The notes below the pieces were generated by a model. It worked only from the letters and a program-made list of their open reading frames with translations. It was not told the origin of the DNA and did not search any database. The translations under genes and the position numbers were made by a program. Shown here in pieces: positions 3,999-53,004 of a stretch of DNA of 64,000 nucleotides (positions are counted from its first letter, which is position 1; each line of letters begins with the position of its first letter). The stretch lies in contig JBGVLZ010000090.1 in assembly GCA_045124505.1 (NCBI GenBank), positions 24,507-88,506 of the forward strand, in the 5' to 3' direction. The stretch comes from Eubacteriales bacterium. GTDB taxonomy: Bacteria; Bacillota; Clostridia; Oscillospirales; CAG-272.

Positions 3999-5297
3999 AT
4001 GGCAAAGAAAACAACAAAAAGCCTGCGTTGGGTTCGTCTTGATAATGCGGCTAAAATATATCCTGCGGCAAGGCGTAAAAATTGGAGCAATGTTTTCAGG
4101 CAATCGGTAACACTTGTAGATGATGTAGATATAAGTGTACTGAAGTCTGCTTTAGATATTACTGTTGAGCGATTTCCGTCAATTGCGGCACGGCTGTGCA
4201 AAGGTCTGTTCTGGTATTATTTACAGCAGGTAGAGTCTGCCCCCGAGATCAGGGATGAATACAGTTATCCGCTTACTTATATGAGCAACAGCGAAATGAA
4301 AAAATGTGCATTTCGTGTAATTGTTTTTAAAAACCGTATTGCCTTAGAGCTGTTTCATTCGCTGACAGACGGTACGGGAGCATTGATCTTTTTGAAAAGT
4401 CTTACAGCGGAGTATCTTGAGCAGAAATATAAAATAAAAATTCCTTGCGAATACGGGATAGTAGACCGCAGGGAAGCACCCACGGAAGAAGAGCTTGAGG
4501 ATTGCTTTCCTAAAAATGCCGGAAAAGTTCCGTTAAGCCGTAAAGATACCGATGCGTGGCATATGTACGGCGACAGACACAAAGACGGTTTTCTTGATCT
4601 GACTTGCTTTAAGATATCTGTTAAAGAAGCGTTGAATATGGCTCATAAATATAATTCAACCTTGACTGTATTTATGAGTGCCGTTATGATGAAGGCTTTG
4701 CTTGATCTGCAAAATGAAAAAAATCCCGATACAAAACGTCAAAAACGGATCAAATTGCTTATACCGATAAATCTTCGCCAAATTTTTCCGAGCAATACCA
4801 TAAGAAATTTTGCGATGTATACAATCCCTGAATTGGACCCGCGCCTCGGAGAATATACACTTGATGAAATTTGCAAGGTCATTCAGCACAAAATGGGAAT
4901 GGAATTTACGGCAAAGCATATGAGCTGTGTTATTGCTACCAACGTAAACGATGAGAAAAATCCGCTTGTGCGTCTTATTCCTCTGCCGATAAAGAATGCT
5001 GTTATGAAAGCTGTTTTTGACAGTGTCGGTGAGAAGAAATCATGCTTATCTTTTTCTAATCTCGGAGCGGTAAAAGTTCCTGATGAAATGGCAAAATATA
5101 TTGAGCGATTTGACTTCATTCTCGGTGTACAGGCAGATGCTCCGTACAACTGCGGAATGTTGTCCTTTGGTGATACTGTATATATTAATTTTATACGTAA
5201 CATCAAGGATGCTGAGCTGGAACGGCACTTTTTTGCCGTTTTAAATGAATTGGGACTTTCTGCTACGGTGGAAAGCAATCAAAAGAGAGGTGAATGA
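3999..5297 (+). CDS. HxxxD(G) acyltransferase of the condensation / alcohol-acetyltransferase-like superfamily
   Basis: HSLTDGTGA active-site-type motif. The 432-aa size fits the family. Family-level call only. Confidence 0.65.
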   Translation: MAKKTTKSLRWVRLDNAAKIYPAARRKNWSNVFRQSVTLVDDVDISVLKSALDITVERFPSIAARLCKGLFWYYLQQVESAPEIRDEYSYPLTYMSNSEMKKCAFRVIVFKNRIALELFHSLTDGTGALIFLKSLTAEYLEQKYKIKIPCEYGIVDRREAPTEEELEDCFPKNAGKVPLSRKDTDAWHMYGDRHKDGFLDLTCFKISVKEALNMAHKYNSTLTVFMSAVMMKALLDLQNEKNPDTKRQKRIKLLIPINLRQIFPSNTIRNFAMYTIPELDPRLGEYTLDEICKVIQHKMGMEFTAKHMSCVIATNVNDEKNPLVRLIPLPIKNAVMKAVFDSVGEKKSCLSFSNLGAVKVPDEMAKYIERFDFILGVQADAPYNCGMLSFGDTVYINFIRNIKDAELERHFFAVLNELGLSATVESNQKRGE

Positions 5298-17766: not shown

Positions 17767-18000
17767 CAAAAAAACGCTTCCGTCTCCTTGTTGAACCAAA
17801 GAGACGAAAACGAAAATAATCACAGTTTCCGCGGTACCACTCTTCTTCATCCCGCACGGGATGCACTTTAGATGCTATCACATCTTAACTCTGTCACGGG
17901 AGTTTCCCGTCTGCCACTACTTGATATTTTCATGCCAGCCGCTCCGCGGTGAGTTCAGCAAAATTTTCTCAGTGTCTTGCACCGCCCGACACCTCTCTGT
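17767..18000 (-). promoter_or_regulatory. T-box riboswitch, specifier CUC (Leu)
   Basis: Read on the minus strand: AGAGAG...GGTGCAAG stem I, then the specifier-loop context GAA-CTC-A (plus 17950-17956). The T-box sequence is AGAGTGGTACCGCGG (plus 17829-17840). The terminator is CGTCTC..GAGACG plus a U-run (17767-17806). Confidence 0.85.
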
Positions 18001-18050
18001 ATGAAAAAAGCTTTGCGTACTATTCCGCATCCTTGCGTTTATTGCAAGCT

Positions 18051-22184: not shown

Positions 22185-23393
22185 TTATTCAGATGCTTTG
22201 AAATTATATACAGGCTTCAATTTGCAGATGATGTCCGCTGTCGGCGCAATATTTCCAATTATTTCAGCAATACTTTTGTATGCCATGGGTGACTCATCAA
22301 GTGTGTCGGGAACAACACAGGTTGAATATATACCTGCCATTTCAGTTTCGTATTCAGCCATTGTAAGACGCTCAAACGCGGCAGAGCGTGACATAAGACG
22401 TCCTGCTCCGTGAGGCGCTGAAAAGTTCCAATCCTCATTTCCTTTACCTATACAGATGAGTGAGCCGTCACGCATATTAATGGGAATAAGGAGCTTTTCG
22501 CCCGCTTTGGCAGACACCGCACCTTTGCGGAGAATCATCTCATTTACATCGATATAGTTGTGTATGGTCTGAAATGTTTCAATGGGTGTGAAATTGCAAT
22601 ATTCAATGATCTTCTCCGCTATTTTTGCACGGTTTCTTTCAGCAAATTTCTGACAAATATCCACGTCGTGAAGATAATCATCCATAAACGAACCGTAGAG
22701 AAAGCAAAGATCACGGGGAAGTGTGGGCTCTTTTGCATGAAATTCATTTTCAAGCGCTTTCAGCGCACCCTGTATTTCGCACCGTCTGCCCTGTTCTTTG
22801 TATGTTCGTATAATTTCATCACGCTGTTTGAAATATTCCTCTTTTCCCGAATTAAGGTCAATGGCAATATCTTGATAAAATTCTGCTACCTGTGTGCCGA
22901 GGTTACGGCTTCCCGAATGTATCACGAGATATTTTCCGCCGTTTTCATCCTCGTCGATTTCAATGAAGTGATTTCCGCCTCCGAGCGTTCCAATCGATCT
23001 TTCAAGACGCTTTGTGTCCTTGAGATTTCTGTAACAGCAAAGAGTTGTAAGGTCAAATCTTTCCTGTCTGCCTTCCCATACGTTTCGCCCCGAGGGAATT
23101 GAATGTGATATCGTATCGACCTTTTCAAAATCGATATCGATGTTTCCGAGGTACACTGTATACATTCCGCATCCGATGTCAACACCGACCATTGAAGGAA
23201 CGATCTTATCCGTTACGGTCATCGTTGTGCCGATCGTACAGCCCTTGCCTGCGTGAACGTCGGGCATTATTCTTATTTTAGAGGATGCAAATGCTTCTGT
23301 ATCGCATACAGCCTTTATTTGCTCAAATGCGCCGTCCTCAACAGTTGTTGCAAAGCACTTGGCTGTGTTGAAATTTCCTTTTATCTCTAACAT
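22185..23393 (-). CDS. rtcB: RNA-splicing/repair ligase RtcB (3'-phosphate/5'-OH ligase)
   Basis: RtcB motifs MPDVHAGKGCTIG, GGGNHFIE, HSGSRNLG, APHGAGR. 402 aa. Confidence 0.92.
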   Translation of the reverse strand: MLEIKGNFNTAKCFATTVEDGAFEQIKAVCDTEAFASSKIRIMPDVHAGKGCTIGTTMTVTDKIVPSMVGVDIGCGMYTVYLGNIDIDFEKVDTISHSIPSGRNVWEGRQERFDLTTLCCYRNLKDTKRLERSIGTLGGGNHFIEIDEDENGGKYLVIHSGSRNLGTQVAEFYQDIAIDLNSGKEEYFKQRDEIIRTYKEQGRRCEIQGALKALENEFHAKEPTLPRDLCFLYGSFMDDYLHDVDICQKFAERNRAKIAEKIIEYCNFTPIETFQTIHNYIDVNEMILRKGAVSAKAGEKLLIPINMRDGSLICIGKGNEDWNFSAPHGAGRLMSRSAAFERLTMAEYETEMAGIYSTCVVPDTLDESPMAYKSIAEIIGNIAPTADIICKLKPVYNFKASE

Positions 23394-23464: not shown

Positions 23465-24568
23465 TCAGGCATTGTTTGTGCTTAAAATAGCCGTAAGGCT
23501 GCTCAGAATATTTCCGTTGCTGTCTACGGAAATATTTCCGACATTTTCGCAAATTTTCTCTATATATTCCAGCTCCTTGAGCTTGTAAAGTGTTTTGTTT
23601 TCGTCCATCAGCTTTGCTGTATTTAATAATGAACGTGTGGAAGCGACCTCCTCACGGCGTGTAATTACATTCGCCTGCGCACGTTTTTCGGCAACAAGCA
23701 CGGTGTTCATTATTTCACGTATTTCACCGGGGAGGATAATGTCCTTTACATCGGCACTTTTGATCTCAACAAACAGCTCTTTTTCCTTTGCTTTCAATTT
23801 TTTATATACAAACTCGGATATCTGCTCCTTATTTTCAAGGATTTCATCGAGCTTATATTTACCAACGTATTCACGCAGGAAAAGCTGGGATGAAACGTGT
23901 ATTTGTTCTGCAAAATCGTCTATTTCCGTCGCTATTTTCACATAGTCGGTAATACGGTAGTTACAGACAAAATTTATGCGCAGAGATACTTTATCCGATG
24001 TCAATATTTCCTGCCCCTGAATATTCATCTGTAAAAGACGTGTGTCTATAAGCTCAGCATCAACCTTCACGGGTGTGTTCCAGAAGTAATATGTACCCAC
24101 ATCTAAAATTCGCTGTAGCTTTTTGTTGAAGTAAAGCCTTGCTTTCTGGTATTCGGCAACCTCTACTTTTGTATAGTAAATTTCGGGTATATTTGAAAAT
24201 ATGTATTCGGGTACAGATTCATCGACTGTCGGATCTGAAATGTCAATGATTTTGAATTCGTGACTGTCAAAGACCTTCCAGAAGGCATACTTCCCACTTG
24301 TAAGCACGGAATGAAACTTGCCGTTTACATAGTGAAGTGCAAGCTCTTCATCTTTCGCCTCCGTCACTGTCACACATTTTGCTATGTTTTTATCCGACAA
24401 CAGTGTTTCAAGGGAACATTTATCTGAAACAATAGGATATTTTAAATCCGAAATTTCAATTTCACTGCCGCCGAAAACGGTATATTTACCCGCACCGAGC
24501 AATTTTATATATTTTCCGTTTTTAAAAAGAAAGCCTCTTTGATTTTCGTTTATTATAATTCTTTTCAT
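23465..24568 (-). CDS. SPFH/band-7 domain protein (cytoplasmic-type, three N-terminal GKY..FW repeats)
   Basis: The C-terminal half has an SPFH-like pattern (TSDKVSLRINFVCNYRITD...EIREIMNTVLVAEKRAQANVITRREEVASTRSLLNTAKL). No N-terminal TM segment is seen. Confidence 0.8.
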   Translation of the reverse strand: MKRIIINENQRGFLFKNGKYIKLLGAGKYTVFGGSEIEISDLKYPIVSDKCSLETLLSDKNIAKCVTVTEAKDEELALHYVNGKFHSVLTSGKYAFWKVFDSHEFKIIDISDPTVDESVPEYIFSNIPEIYYTKVEVAEYQKARLYFNKKLQRILDVGTYYFWNTPVKVDAELIDTRLLQMNIQGQEILTSDKVSLRINFVCNYRITDYVKIATEIDDFAEQIHVSSQLFLREYVGKYKLDEILENKEQISEFVYKKLKAKEKELFVEIKSADVKDIILPGEIREIMNTVLVAEKRAQANVITRREEVASTRSLLNTAKLMDENKTLYKLKELEYIEKICENVGNISVDSNGNILSSLTAILSTNNA

Positions 24569-24807
24569 ATATTTAATTCCTTTCTAAAACTTAATGGATT
24601 TCTGACCTGTTTTGCTGTATCCGAAGCATTCGGAATATAGTCTTGCAAACAGCTTTGACATCGTCTTTAAGCTCACGGGGAAAACCTTTTGCAAGCTCTT
24701 CTGTAAGCATGTTCTTTTTTGATCTGAATAAAAAACGCATACCGTTACCTCAAGATTTGTTTGCGTTACCATTTTTGCAAAAGCGGCGGCTGAAATCTTG
24801 AGTGATG

Positions 24808-25085
24808 CCGCAGTACCACGGAAAATTCGGTGATGCTTTGGAAAACACGGTATCTGTTTTCAGACAAGGCACGCTTTTGCTCGATGATAACCAATCTTTA
24901 ATTAAATATTCTCTTACACAAAAGCGGACCTTTGTGTAATATCTGCGTCCCGAAGGACAAAATCCAAACCGCTGGCATATACCTTTTGAGTATACGGCGG
25001 GATTCGAACCCGCGAAATGAGAGCTTAAAAGGCTCAATGCAAAATTACATCAGCATACACTTCGGAATATCCCCGTGCACTGCGG
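24808..25085 (-). ncRNA. candidate structured RNA (Y-RNA-like / tRNA-like-module RNA, or structured 5' leader of the SPFH-rtcB transcript)
   Basis: A 13-bp long-range helix (plus 25073-25085 with 24808-24821) has one G-U that is valid only on the minus strand. A second helix pairs 25052-25060 with 24830-24837. It encloses a tRNA-shaped module, a UUCG-capped hairpin (24947-24958) and an 8-bp hairpin (24915-24938). There is no convincing ORF or RBS in the 610-bp gap. Confidence 0.35.
24989..25058 (-). other. tRNA-like module inside the candidate RNA (perfect T-arm, aberrant D-arm)
   Basis: Minus strand: acceptor-like GTATGCT/CGTATAC; anticodon-like arm with loop CTTTTAA; T-arm GCGGG-TTCGAAT-CCCGC (plus 24997-25013). 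The D-arm lacks GG, position 8 is not U, and there is no CCA. Confidence 0.4.
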
Positions 25086-25158
25086 TGAAGAATTGCTCAA
25101 ACACACGCTTTGTAACCTTGCAAGCATATTTTACCACCGCATTTCATGTTTTTCACGG

Positions 25159-25191
25159 AAAAAAAGCTGCGAACTTAATTAAAGTCCGCAG
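25159..25191 (-). terminator. intrinsic terminator of the WYL gene pair
   Basis: Minus strand CTGCGGA...TTCGCAG 7-bp stem overlapping the stop codon, followed by CTTTTTTT. Confidence 0.5.
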
Positions 25192-26087
25192 TTTAACTGT
25201 TTTTTGAGTTTTTCAATAACTGATTTTCTGAATGATTCAGGGGCAGTAACCTCAACCATCGGCCCGAAAGAAAGTATCCTGATTACCATTTCGGGTTCAT
25301 CATCGTGAACGTATTTTATCCTGACAAGATAATTTTTCTTGTCAAGCTTCTCAGCTTGCTTTTCAAAATGGGCAAAGTGAAGCATAAAGCGTTCAAGTGT
25401 ATTTCTTTCATCGTGTATCTTCACTGTAACGGTATTATATGCAGCATCACGTTCTTTTCCGACTGAAATTCTTTCACCTGTGTAATGGTTACAAGACATT
25501 ATTTTTGCAAGATTTACAGTAGGCACGTGGCGGCGTCCTGCTGTTATAACTCTGAATTTGTCGTCCTTTTCGGAATATTCAAGTCTTACAGGTCTGCATC
25601 TGACAAACATTGTGTTGCCTTGGCGGTTAATCATTTCAAATTTTATTTGTGACTTTTTCCGTATAGCCTCAAGAATTACCCTGAACTGTCTTATGTATTC
25701 TTCATTTTCAAACGGATCGCCGTCACCGTATTTATCGTAGATGTAATAATCCTCGGAAGTAAAAAGAGGTTCAACTCCGTCAAGGTCGGGAAAATCAATA
25801 TCAAATAATTTTATTCTCGGATCAAGTGAAATTGCTTTAAGCCATCTTTTCTGAAGAGTTGTCAGGGGCATTGTGGGCTTGTGCTCAAGCGGTGTTGTCA
25901 CGTCACTGTGTACAAGTTGCCATTTTTCGTTTTTGAATGAAGGAATAATAGTCAGCACGCTTTCACCGAAAGCACGGTCATAAACTACTTTTTGTAATTC
26001 CTTTTCGGAGCATTCGCCTTCAATGATCTTGGATATGATATCGGCAACTGTGTTATAATATGCAGAATAAAGCTCGCTGAATATCAT
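25179..26087 (-). CDS. WYL-domain regulator-like protein (PafC-like partner)
   Basis: 302 aa. The segment NTMFVRCRPVRLEYSEKDDKFRVITAG...VNLAKIMS fits the WYL Sm-like barrel pattern. It overlaps the upstream WYL gene by 4 nt. Confidence 0.65.
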   Translation of the reverse strand: MIFSELYSAYYNTVADIISKIIEGECSEKELQKVVYDRAFGESVLTIIPSFKNEKWQLVHSDVTTPLEHKPTMPLTTLQKRWLKAISLDPRIKLFDIDFPDLDGVEPLFTSEDYYIYDKYGDGDPFENEEYIRQFRVILEAIRKKSQIKFEMINRQGNTMFVRCRPVRLEYSEKDDKFRVITAGRRHVPTVNLAKIMSCNHYTGERISVGKERDAAYNTVTVKIHDERNTLERFMLHFAHFEKQAEKLDKKNYLVRIKYVHDDEPEMVIRILSFGPMVEVTAPESFRKSVIEKLKKQLNCGL

Positions 26088-39979: not shown

Positions 39980-40235
39980 TAGATTAATAGGTTATGATGA
40001 AGGCAGTACGGTAGGATCAATGTTTACAGAGAGCCGCATAATGGTGCAAGTGCGGTAACAAATTTTACCTGAAGAACACTTCGGAGCCTGCGGAAGAACG
40101 CCTTTTGGTTATTAGAACCGCACGTTGATCGCGAAAAGATTTAATGAAGAGGGCCGTTTTACGGTCAATTTGGGTGGTATCGCGGAAGAGGAGCCTTTCG
40201 TCCCATATTATGGGGCGGAAGGCATTTTGTTTTTC
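39980..40235 (+). promoter_or_regulatory. T-box riboswitch, probable specifier AAC (Asn)
   Basis: AGAGAG (40028-40033)...GGTGCAAG. The specifier context is CTGAAG-AAC-A-CTTCGG (AAC at 40075-40077). The T-box sequence is AATTTGGGTGGTATCGCGG (~40168-40186). The terminator GCCTTTCGTCCC/GGGGCGGAAGGC is followed by a T-run. Confidence 0.85.
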
Positions 40236-48289: not shown

Positions 48290-48551
48290 ATGTAAACACT
48301 GTGAAGAAAACGGCAGAAAAAGGTTTTCGCAGAGAGTCGGCGGCAGGTGTAAGCCGATAAAACTGATTTCGGTAAGCCACATCATTTCTGAGTGGGAGAG
48401 GTGAAGACAGTAGCTTCTCACGTTAAGCCGCGTTAAGGCAAAGGGCTTTGTGATGAGTCCGAAGTGGCATTTTTATGCAAATTGAGTGGTACCGCGGATC
48501 ATTCCGTCTCAAGGTTGTTAAAGGACTTTGAGACGTTTTTTGTTTTCACGC
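48290..48551 (+). promoter_or_regulatory. T-box riboswitch, tentative specifier AUC (Ile)
   Basis: AGAGAG..GGTGTAAG. The lower stem CAGAAA/TTTCTG is the same geometry as the Phe leader, with AC-ATC-A immediately 5' of TTTCTG (ATC at 48381-48383). The T-box sequence is AAATTGAGTGGTACCGCGG (48479-48497). The terminator is CGTCTCAA..TTGAGACG plus a T-run (48505-48551). Confidence 0.8.
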
Positions 48552-52689: not shown

Positions 52690-52892
52690 TAAATTCGAAC
52701 CTTTGGGAATTCAGTGAAATCGTTCACTTTCACTCACGGCGAAATAATTCACTTGGTGAATTGTGAATTTGATGCTGCCGCATCAAGTGAAATTAAATCC
52801 ACCAACTCGCCGTCGAGGCGAATTTCACACGCCGCAGGCGTATTTCATATTGCAAAGCAATATTTCATCCACCCGTAAGGGTGGATTTAATT
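52690..52892. repeat. array of ~7 different short hairpins separated by (A)TTTCA(C/T)/GAAAT spacers
   Basis: Hairpins read directly: AGTGAA..TTCACT, AATTCAC-TTGG-GTGAATT, TGATGC..GCATCA, CGCC..GGCG, ACGCC-GCA-GGCGT, ATTGC-AAA-GCAAT, ATCCACCC-GTAA-GGGTGGAT. Confidence 0.55.
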
Positions 52893-52928
52893 GAAAATGA
52901 CAGATTCCTGTCGGAATCTGTCATTTTC
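52893..52928. terminator. 16-bp perfect hairpin directly 3' of tRNA-Thr (terminator for the minus-strand tRNA)
   Basis: GAAAATGACAGATTCC-TGTC-GGAATCTGTCATTTTC. Confidence 0.6.
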
Positions 52929-53004
52929 TGGAGCTGCTAGACAGAGTCGAACTGTCGACCTCATCCTTACCAAGGATGTGCTCTGCCAGCTGAGCCATAG
53001 CAGC
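52929..53004 (-). tRNA. tRNA-Thr: tRNA-Thr (anticodon GGU), CCA-encoded
   Basis: The minus strand GCTGCTATGGCTCAGCTGGCAGAGCACATCCTTGGTAAGGATGAGGTCGACAGTTCGACTCTGTCTAGCAGCTCCA folds as a cloverleaf. It has a 7-bp acceptor, a D-arm GCTC/GAGC with GG, anticodon loop TTGGTAA, and T-arm GACAG-TTCGACT-CTGTC. Confidence 0.9.

Follow-up and report, generated by a model that had tools for sequence, protein, structure and literature searches.

Large structured RNAs with a tRNA-like module in WYL-SPFH-RtcB cassettes of gut Clostridia

The RNA ligase RtcB is well understood; its natural substrates and the roles of the adjacent RNAs (Y RNAs, YrlA, and the predicted b7a-tRNA) are a long-standing puzzle. 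Here, we describe an RNA family that makes the part played by RNAs in RtcB repair systems more tractable. It was studied in a 64,000-nucleotide stretch of an Eubacteriales genome of the class Clostridia (contig JBGVLZ010000090.1, positions 24,507 to 88,506; below, the window), where the RNA lies between a pair of WYL regulators and the genes of an SPFH (Band-7) protein and RtcB. Two described systems come closest to it. In YrlA (Rfam RF02553), the tRNA-like domain has, according to the Wolin laboratory, a T stem-loop, followed by a closed acceptor stem-loop and then a D stem-loop; the YrlA gene lies together with rsr (Ro60) and rtcB, in Salmonella as in many other bacteria, and is co-transcribed with protein genes. 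Modification by TruB and DusA and an L-shaped tertiary fold are further traits of YrlA. The b7a-tRNA, as cited in bioRxiv 10.1101/312249, is a prediction by Burroughs and Aravind (2016), unvalidated, of a tRNA-like RNA in band-7/RtcB operons; the same source has YrlA occasionally adjoining band-7 genes, a prediction likewise unvalidated.

All cassette features of the window lie on its minus strand (Table 1; coordinates are window positions throughout). Between the promoter and an open reading frame (ORF) of 49 amino acids (aa), about 360 nucleotides (nt) are free of any credible gene, and the RNA occupies this interval. Eighty loci encoding SPFH relatives were taken, and their noncoding region was searched by blastn and then with an nhmmer profile. 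The RNA was found in 60 of the 80, always on the SPFH strand and directly upstream of SPFH. In a separate search of metagenome contigs, a 32-nt degenerate motif from the RNA was by itself enough to retrieve 51 further loci, bringing the family to about 110 genome and metagenome loci of gut and rumen Clostridia with a defined promoter, a covariation-backed architecture, and fixed protein partners. Wherever a motif-found locus had enough downstream sequence, SPFH followed ~400 nt downstream, and most of those with enough upstream sequence had WYL_B ~100 nt upstream. Zero matches to the 32-nt motif were obtained in viral contigs, which rules against a phage origin of the RNA. The conserved order is WYL_A, WYL_B, RNA, an optional 206-aa gene, SPFH/slipin, and usually RtcB; WYL_A precedes the RNA in most loci, and the end of WYL_B stands ~100 nt from the RNA in relatives. 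The cassette spans Oscillospiraceae, Lachnospiraceae, Acutalibacteraceae, Christensenellaceae, and Anaerovoracaceae, and its hallmark motifs also occur in one metagenome-assembled Spirochaetales genome. Since the family is absent from Rfam, it is unannotated in the genomes that carry it.

At some loci the RNA stays linked to SPFH though RtcB is absent. One of these (L106, 7752-9606) continues downstream with a 135-aa ORF and FeoB; another (L095, 8345-9932) has no WYL pair upstream and a HIRAN-domain ORF downstream. On a short contig that also holds a copy of the RNA, a match resembling a c-di-GMP-I-GGC riboswitch was seen (L099, 1179-1261, plus strand; 52.5 bits, gathering score 59).

A preliminary description, made from the letters of the window, had proposed a structured RNA of ~280 nt transcribed from the minus strand between the WYL pair and SPFH-rtcB. 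Homologues confirm the RNA and its strand and correct its size. In an alignment of 55 homologous sequences (A2), paired cells were scored against shuffles and slid controls. A comparative model made of local hairpins and nested 3' helices has 89.9% of its cells paired, versus 77.8% in shuffles and 31 to 45% in slid controls; cells in which both partners have changed number 545 versus 190 in shuffles, and none of 500 shuffles reaches the observed value. Many conserved G-U pairs would become A-C mismatches if read on the other strand, so the structure is specific to the minus strand. Folded as a single sequence, the RNA of the window has a minimum-energy z score of -5.5 relative to shuffles. Because conservation passes the earlier coordinates on both sides, into the promoter block and downstream to about 24765, the RNA is placed at about 25121 to about 24765; covarying helices lie beyond the ends first proposed, and the length is about 360 nt here and 380 to 470 nt in relatives.

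The best-supported tRNA-like unit within this RNA is a segment of 73 nt that we read as a circularly permuted tRNA mimic, running from tRNA position 27 round to position 26. It consists of an anticodon-like arm, a 6-nt linker, the T arm, a capped acceptor-like hairpin, and a D-like hairpin, and corresponds to a tRNA in the order anticodon arm, variable region, T arm, acceptor 3' strand, cap loop, acceptor 5' strand, D arm. The last three hairpins are contiguous, free of linkers, and each covarying, and the isolated 73-nt segment folds into exactly the four hairpins. The T arm, called textbook in the preliminary description, is as described and covaries (25013-24997): it is 99.3% paired, 4 of its 5 pairs show compensatory change, and its loop always reads UUCRANU. 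Its 13-mer GGGTTCGAATCCC occurs once in the window against an expectation of 0.01. The capped acceptor-like hairpin is 96.1% paired, has compensatory changes in 5 of 7 pairs, and forms in the minimum-energy fold of the isolated module. The D-like hairpin is 94.8% paired, with CCAG(U)GGNUUGG nearly universal. The 7-nt anticodon-like loop CUUUUAA, also noted earlier, sits on a covarying 4-bp stem (25035-25021 including the loop), all four pairs of which are changed on both sides across homologues; the loop is CUGUCAA in most close relatives. A module of this order may adopt an L-shaped tertiary fold.

The same segment had first been read as a standard cloverleaf with a degenerate D arm. This register is not what covaries: the supposed D arm is not the D arm, and the acceptor stem is capped instead of pairing with a strand upstream. 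The 7-bp acceptor-like helix of that reading can be drawn in the register 25060-25054/24996-24990 but shows no covariation, with 92.7% of cells compatible versus 92.3% in shuffles; because its 5' strand is invariant, it shows only one double change. It also competes with two covarying hairpins, 25080-25075/25060-25055 and 24996-24990/24982-24976. ARAGORN calls no tRNA at the RNA locus of the window, and its calls inside two relatives (L050 and L064) are forced fits.

The 5' domain joins this mimic to a stem-loop that is the most conserved stretch of the whole RNA, its stem and apical helices being 98.8% and 99.4% paired over the 55 sequences. In the stem, an A-U pair is replaced by G-C in 7 sequences and by C-G in 1; the apex is closed by A-U in 30 of the sequences and by C-G in 24. 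Two further hairpins named in the preliminary description, at 24958-24947 and 24939-24914 (its "8-bp stem"), exist and covary, the latter with compensatory changes even between near-identical strains. Other clades have a longer stretch separating the 5' stem-loop from the T arm, and this stretch holds a second T-arm-like hairpin (GGGGUUCAACUCCCC). A 5'-terminal hairpin at 25125-25107 was considered and set aside, since its support is weak, at 81.9% paired, and part of it precedes the probable start site; the window and six near-identical strains lack 2 nt of it.

The 3' domain is a rod of nested helices. Aligned separately in 44 sequences, it gives 45 pairs in RNAalifold, which are 94.6% paired versus 80.8% in shuffles and 34 to 45% in slid controls; 34 of the 45 pairs show compensatory changes with both sides changed. 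At single positions of hairpin Hd all four Watson-Crick pair kinds are found, and in the closest relative with sequence there (L002) Hd is a perfect 7-bp local hairpin. The rod also contains an invariant GAUACCG at 24852-24846. The comparative search established no helix between the 5' domain and the rod; four pairings were considered, UUUGAG/CUCAAA, GCGG/CCGC, GCGGU/GCCGC, and 5'-end/CGCCAG, and all were rejected as invariant or as clashing with better-supported helices. The rod varies among lineages: most other aligned homologues have a hairpin of ~40 nt branching between Ha and Hb (about 24883/24882; A2 columns 417-464) that the window and its six near-identical strains lack, and L012 has, at about 4780-4880, an insertion of ~100 nt, itself a long hairpin, in the loop beside the invariant GGAUACCG.

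The terminator after the WYL pair and the extended -10 that had been noted upstream are both present and belong to a near-invariant promoter block. The arrangement TTCGCAGCTTTTTTTCCGTGAAAA-N13-TGGTAAAAT is nearly invariant across 24 relatives, also in those with a gene other than WYL_B upstream, and has no second copy in the window. The TTCGCAGCTTTTTTTCCGTGAAAA element probably serves the WYL pair as an operator or UP-like element, and from the position of the promoter the start of transcription is estimated to lie near 25121. Downstream, a comparison across loci found neither a terminator nor a conserved Shine-Dalgarno-sequestering helix between the RNA and the first ORF. The window does have 8 bp of perfect complementarity that would join CUCAAGAU, within the 3' domain (24795-24802), to AUCUUGAG at the Shine-Dalgarno sequence of the 49-aa ORF (24749-24756); a conserved sequestration was rejected, the pairing being confined to the window's lineage and absent in L002 and other relatives.

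TABLE 1 Features of the cassette and of its RNA in the window
Feature	Position	Strand	Evidence
WYL_A, first cassette gene; helix-turn-helix + WYL domain regulator, 438 aa	26084..27400	-	Pfam WYL; PADLOC WYL signalling model
WYL_B, WYL/WCX regulator, 302 aa, partner of WYL_A	25179..26087	-	Pfam WCX; PADLOC WYL
Intrinsic-terminator-like hairpin with T run, after WYL_B; 3' half and T run within the conserved promoter block	25167..25191	-	
Promoter/operator block: TTCGCAGCTTTTTTTCCGTGAAAA (25173-25150), ~13 nt, extended -10 TGGTAAAAT (25136-25128)	25128..25173	-	promoter scan + conservation
Structured RNA as a whole, about 357 nt in the window (relatives: 380-470 nt)	24765..25121	-	profile search + covariation
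5' hairpin: stem GUGCAC/GUGUAU (25080-25075 with 25060-25055), apical GGA-UAU-UCC (25072-25070 with 25066-25064)	25055..25080	-	covariation; RNAalifold
Anticodon-arm-like hairpin, 7-nt loop CUUUUAA	25020..25036	-	covariation
T arm GCGGG-UUCGAAU-CCCGC	24997..25013	-	covariation, T-arm model match
Capped acceptor-like hairpin, 7 bp, CGUAUAC/GUAUAUG, abutting the T stem directly	24976..24996	-	covariation; RNAalifold
D-loop-like hairpin CCAGCGGUUUGG, conserved GG in loop	24964..24975	-	covariation
Hairpin GUCC-UUCG-GGAC (other clade: GCCG-GAAA-CGGC)	24947..24958	-	covariation
Hairpin UUACAC.../...GUGUAA	24914..24939	-	5/6 pairs compensatory
3' rod domain of nested helices, ~130 nt	24765..24891	-	covariation, RNAalifold
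Helix Ha	24891-24884 with 24772-24765	-	
Helix Hb	24880-24872 with 24785-24777	-	
Helix Hc	24863-24858 with 24795-24790	-	
Helix He	24848-24846 with 24804-24802	-	
Hairpin Hd	24835-24830 with 24819-24814	-	
49-aa ORF, deletion remnant of the 206-aa accessory gene	24591..24740	-	comparison with relatives
SPFH/Band-7 gene (slipin, stomatin-like)	23465..24568	-	Pfam Band_7
rtcB, RtcB RNA ligase	22185..23393	-	Pfam RtcB; NCBIfam

Set beside YrlA, the clostridial RNA has the same order of T, closed acceptor, and D elements, an order also seen in the Rfam consensus of YrlA. The two share their T stem (GCGGG/CCCGC) as well, and the loop on it is of the UUCGA type. Both RNAs are found inside RtcB repair operons, and the clostridial RNA shares with YrlA its placement in an operon with protein genes. 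The differences are equally clear. The clostridial RNA has no Ro60/TROVE gene beside it and no conserved Ro-binding stem of 5' and 3' ends; the position of the anticodon stem is taken by a closed hairpin with a 7-nt loop, where YrlA leads into a long stem; at 3 to 4 times the length of YrlA, the RNA has a 5' hairpin and a 3' rod of ~130 nt in addition; and the regulators of its cassette are WYL proteins, not RtcR. Its niche, directly upstream of the Band-7/SPFH gene of a repair operon with RtcB, is also that of b7a-tRNA. The b7a-tRNA is said to "strongly resemble an authentic tRNA," whereas the clostridial RNA is permuted, is not called by ARAGORN, and is embedded in a larger structure, a comparison made by description.

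Searched with gathering and permissive thresholds in the window, in the isolated module, and in 20 relatives, Rfam 15 returned for this RNA fragments of the T arm only. The families named in the preliminary description for such a scan (Y_RNA/YrlA, ROOL, GOLLD, raiA, T-box, tRNA, and tmRNA) thus give nothing beyond the T arm. The Rfam tRNA model has no match in the RNA region at its gathering threshold or at E values up to 10, the YrlA model has no match in the 20 relatives, and the T arm of the RNA in the window gives a local tmRNA/YrlA T-arm match in the permissive search. A canonical T arm with a 7-bp acceptor-like stem beside the T stem is common to tRNA, tmRNA, and the clostridial RNA, but the last has no free acceptor ends, no CCA, and no cloverleaf, and the models match the T arm only. 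T-box leaders likewise place a long structured RNA with T-loop motifs between promoter and genes in Firmicutes; the T-box model (RF00230) has no match at the RNA, where terminator and antiterminator are also lacking, whereas the three true T-boxes of the window score 98 to 125 bits. ROOL, GOLLD, raiA, OLE, and HEARO resemble the RNA in size (360 to 470 nt here), in many covarying helices, and in having no assigned function, but none gives an Rfam match up to an E value of 10, and the clostridial RNA has a fixed operon context. Taken together, it is a well-supported unannotated family, a new, enlarged variant of the YrlA/b7a-tRNA kind, and not a categorically new class. The Y-RNA-like kinship first suggested therefore holds in kind, through a genuine tRNA-like component and kinship to the RNAs of RtcB operons, and the suggestion of a possible new class was overstated, given that a band-7-associated tRNA-like RNA and YrlA beside band-7 genes were predicted in 2016 (cited in bioRxiv 10.1101/312249).

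How widespread are such leaders outside the Clostridia? Distant SPFH homologues at 33 to 35% identity were followed to find loci with tRNA-like RNAs. The locus of Burkholderia cenocepacia comprises RtcR, two tandem tRNA-like elements, a small hairpin, a predicted rod of ~200 nt, SPFH, and RtcB, and thus shares with the clostridial RNA the layout of tRNA-like elements followed by a long hairpin. ARAGORN calls one of its elements, a cloverleaf of standard topology that has a true D arm; it does not call the clostridial RNA. The tandem elements (L133, 5617-5738) are a mascRNA-like mini-tRNA and a cloverleaf with a GAAA-capped anticodon stem. Citrobacter and 1,632 of 5,426 complete Escherichia coli genomes (about 30%) encode a pair of slipin and RlaP nucleotidyltransferase, preceded by a sigma-54-type promoter and an unannotated leader of ~300 nt. 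This leader has a T-loop hairpin (GGGUUCGAUUCCC) followed by a capped hairpin (L141, 3302-3829, in E. coli EC974; L132, 5547-5994, in Citrobacter freundii) and is possibly a YrlA/b7a-type RNA missed by genome annotation. From the Burkholderia, Citrobacter, and E. coli loci, a long tRNA-like leader before the SPFH genes of RNA-repair operons seems to be general, and the clostridial RNA is its large, permuted, WYL-regulated version.

What might such an RNA do? From its architecture and context, we give about even odds (a probability of about 0.5) that it is a trans-acting partner of both SPFH and RtcB and supplies the RNA of a five-part cassette for RNA repair in gut Clostridia. Transcription would start near 25121 from the extended -10 promoter, presumably under control of the WYL pair, and the first ~357 nt would fold into the 5' domain (stem-loop and tRNA mimic) and the 3' rod. 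The RNA would act in trans, either after processing or while it still forms the structured 5' portion of the operon's transcript, and would be to SPFH and RtcB what a Y RNA or YrlA is to Ro60 and RtcB. The rod and the conserved single-stranded motifs may bind the SPFH oligomer, and the mimic may present a tRNA-shaped elbow to tRNA-recognizing enzymes such as RtcB, nucleases, and modification enzymes, as an adaptor or a decoy. The comparisons show the conservation of the RNA, its strand, its helices, the order of its modules, its exclusive link to the cassette, and the conserved promoter; the transcript ends, the L shape, protein binding, and the role in repair are what we infer. Several observations pull against a trans-acting partner of this kind. 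The RNA occupies the position expected of a cis-acting 5' leader, its sequence bears no mark of a 3' end, and its two domains lack an established joining helix. No TROVE/Ro gene is found among the cassette neighbors (WYL, WYL, SPFH, and RtcB), and the Rfam YrlA model gives only a local 17-nt T-arm match of 12.1 bits against a gathering score of 69. Within the mimic, the anticodon-like arm is missing in some clades, and the D-loop-like hairpin is short, its docking onto the T loop being presumed. Finally, the minimum-energy fold of the window (-112.6 kcal/mol) differs from the comparative model (-105.9 kcal/mol), a gap of 6.7 kcal/mol that is within prediction error for 360 nt.

The position of the RNA would equally suit a purely cis-acting leader of the SPFH-rtcB mRNA that senses a ligand, a protein (SPFH, RtcB, or WYL), or (damaged) tRNA by switching between alternative pairings, a reading that we regard as possible but doubtful. 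The stretch from the promoter to the first ORF, where the RNA lies, has no terminator, and the same genome uses three T-box leaders. Alternative pairings can also be drawn: 24996-24990 can pair with 25060-25054 (92.7% compatible) or with 24982-24976, each excluding the other; the 3' strands of Ha and Hb can, in the window, pair instead with the 5' end; and 24802-24795 is complementary, in the window's lineage, to the Shine-Dalgarno region 24756-24749. In each set of alternatives, however, just one pairing covaries, and no conserved terminator/antiterminator or Shine-Dalgarno-sequestering helix is found across loci. The RNA is also far larger than known riboswitches, and its YrlA-type tRNA mimic is known from trans-acting RNAs. 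A different use of the mimic, as a sentinel or decoy substrate whose loop is cut by anticodon nucleases or toxins and so feeds the WYL switch, appears unlikely. It would fit the place of the WYL pair, which stands where RtcR, a CARF regulator switched on by tRNA fragments (PMC7790460), stands in Proteobacteria, and CUGUCAA resembles anticodon loops in its U at position 2 and its AA at positions 6 and 7. The loop sequence is conserved, however, and not matched to varying tRNAs, the arm that carries it is missing in some clades, and YrlA itself is uncleaved in Salmonella (PMC7790460).

The fold of the preliminary description, a Y-RNA-like molecule of ~280 nt with two closing helices around an internal standard cloverleaf, we consider very improbable. 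Its 13-bp closing helix (25085-25073/24821-24808) is a real complementarity, with one G-U and one bulged G, and so is the second helix (25060-25052/24837-24830; 8 bp with one bulged U); both dominate the minimum-energy fold of the window as a single sequence and are invariant among its closest strains. Neither is conserved beyond them. Over the 55 homologues, 49.6% of their cells are paired versus 49.4% in shuffles, without excess covariation, so that the comparison across homologous loci supports the T arm of the original proposal but not its closing helices. In place of the long bulged stem typical of Y RNAs, their strands form covarying local hairpins: the 5' strands overlap the 5' hairpin, and the 3' strands lie in and beside Hd, the hairpin that is perfect in L002. 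Covarying helices outside the proposed ends speak against this fold as well. Because the helices are invariant among six near-identical strains, a lineage-specific alternative fold may exist in the window. That the element is a remnant of a tRNA gene, an integration scar, or a short protein-coding region is, finally, hardly credible. Its T arm is perfect, and ORFs of 95 and 91 aa overlap the region, but the element stands at the same place of the cassette in about 110 loci, its helix substitutions are compensatory, and no reading frame is kept among relatives. The tRNA-Lys remnant envisaged at the outset finds no counterpart in the window, whose sole tRNA is a tRNA-Thr with a different T arm.

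A trans-acting partner of SPFH and RtcB can be pictured more concretely. Together with the soluble stomatin-like SPFH protein, the RNA might form a large cage-type ribonucleoprotein dedicated to surveillance and repair of tRNA damage, with the mimic as a bait or sensor that is cut by anticodon nucleases and resealed by RtcB, and with fragments or displaced tRNAs switching on the WYL pair. We hold this picture to be a long shot; if true, it would provide the first SPFH assembly that contains RNA and the first WYL transcription switch that senses RNA fragments for RNA repair. More generally, a YrlA-type permuted tRNA mimic here occurs without Ro60, joined to a second large domain, a soluble stomatin-like protein, and WYL regulators. 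Two questions thereby become directly testable: do SPFH proteins act as RNA-binding scaffolds, as was proposed in 2016, and is tRNA mimicry what the RtcB-linked RNAs have in common?

The proteins of the cassette have features of their own. No membrane helix is predicted in the SPFH protein, whose peak hydropathy over 19 residues is 0.79, and several of its closest solved relatives in the PDB are stomatin entries with 16 chains. Three SPFH homologues (P0002, P0004, and P0052) are near double length at ~638 aa, cover the whole 367-aa query at 44 to 59% identity, and may be fusions with another cassette component. The WYL proteins match PADLOC's WYL signalling models of CRISPR-associated regulators; assignment of the cassette to a listed defense system was dropped, PADLOC giving generic WYL models only. 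The 49-aa ORF consists of the start and the end of the 206-aa gene (family unassigned) fused together. This gene is intact between the RNA and SPFH in L002, L013, L023, L024, L041, L044, L050, L055, and several metagenome loci. The same 49-aa remnant is present in three more samples (L138 to L140), so the deletion is a stable variant of the window's lineage.

Elsewhere in the window, three T-box leaders score above gathering, at 17797-18042 (minus strand), 39985-40208 (plus strand), and 48292-48514 (plus strand), the first of which sits before DAHP synthase, ACT, and AMP-ligase genes downstream of rtcB. The sole tRNA gene of the window, tRNA-Thr GGU, is followed ~36 nt downstream by a Gut-1 RNA (Rfam RF01706, 86 bits), the pair lying at 52817-52893 and 52929-53004, both on the minus strand.

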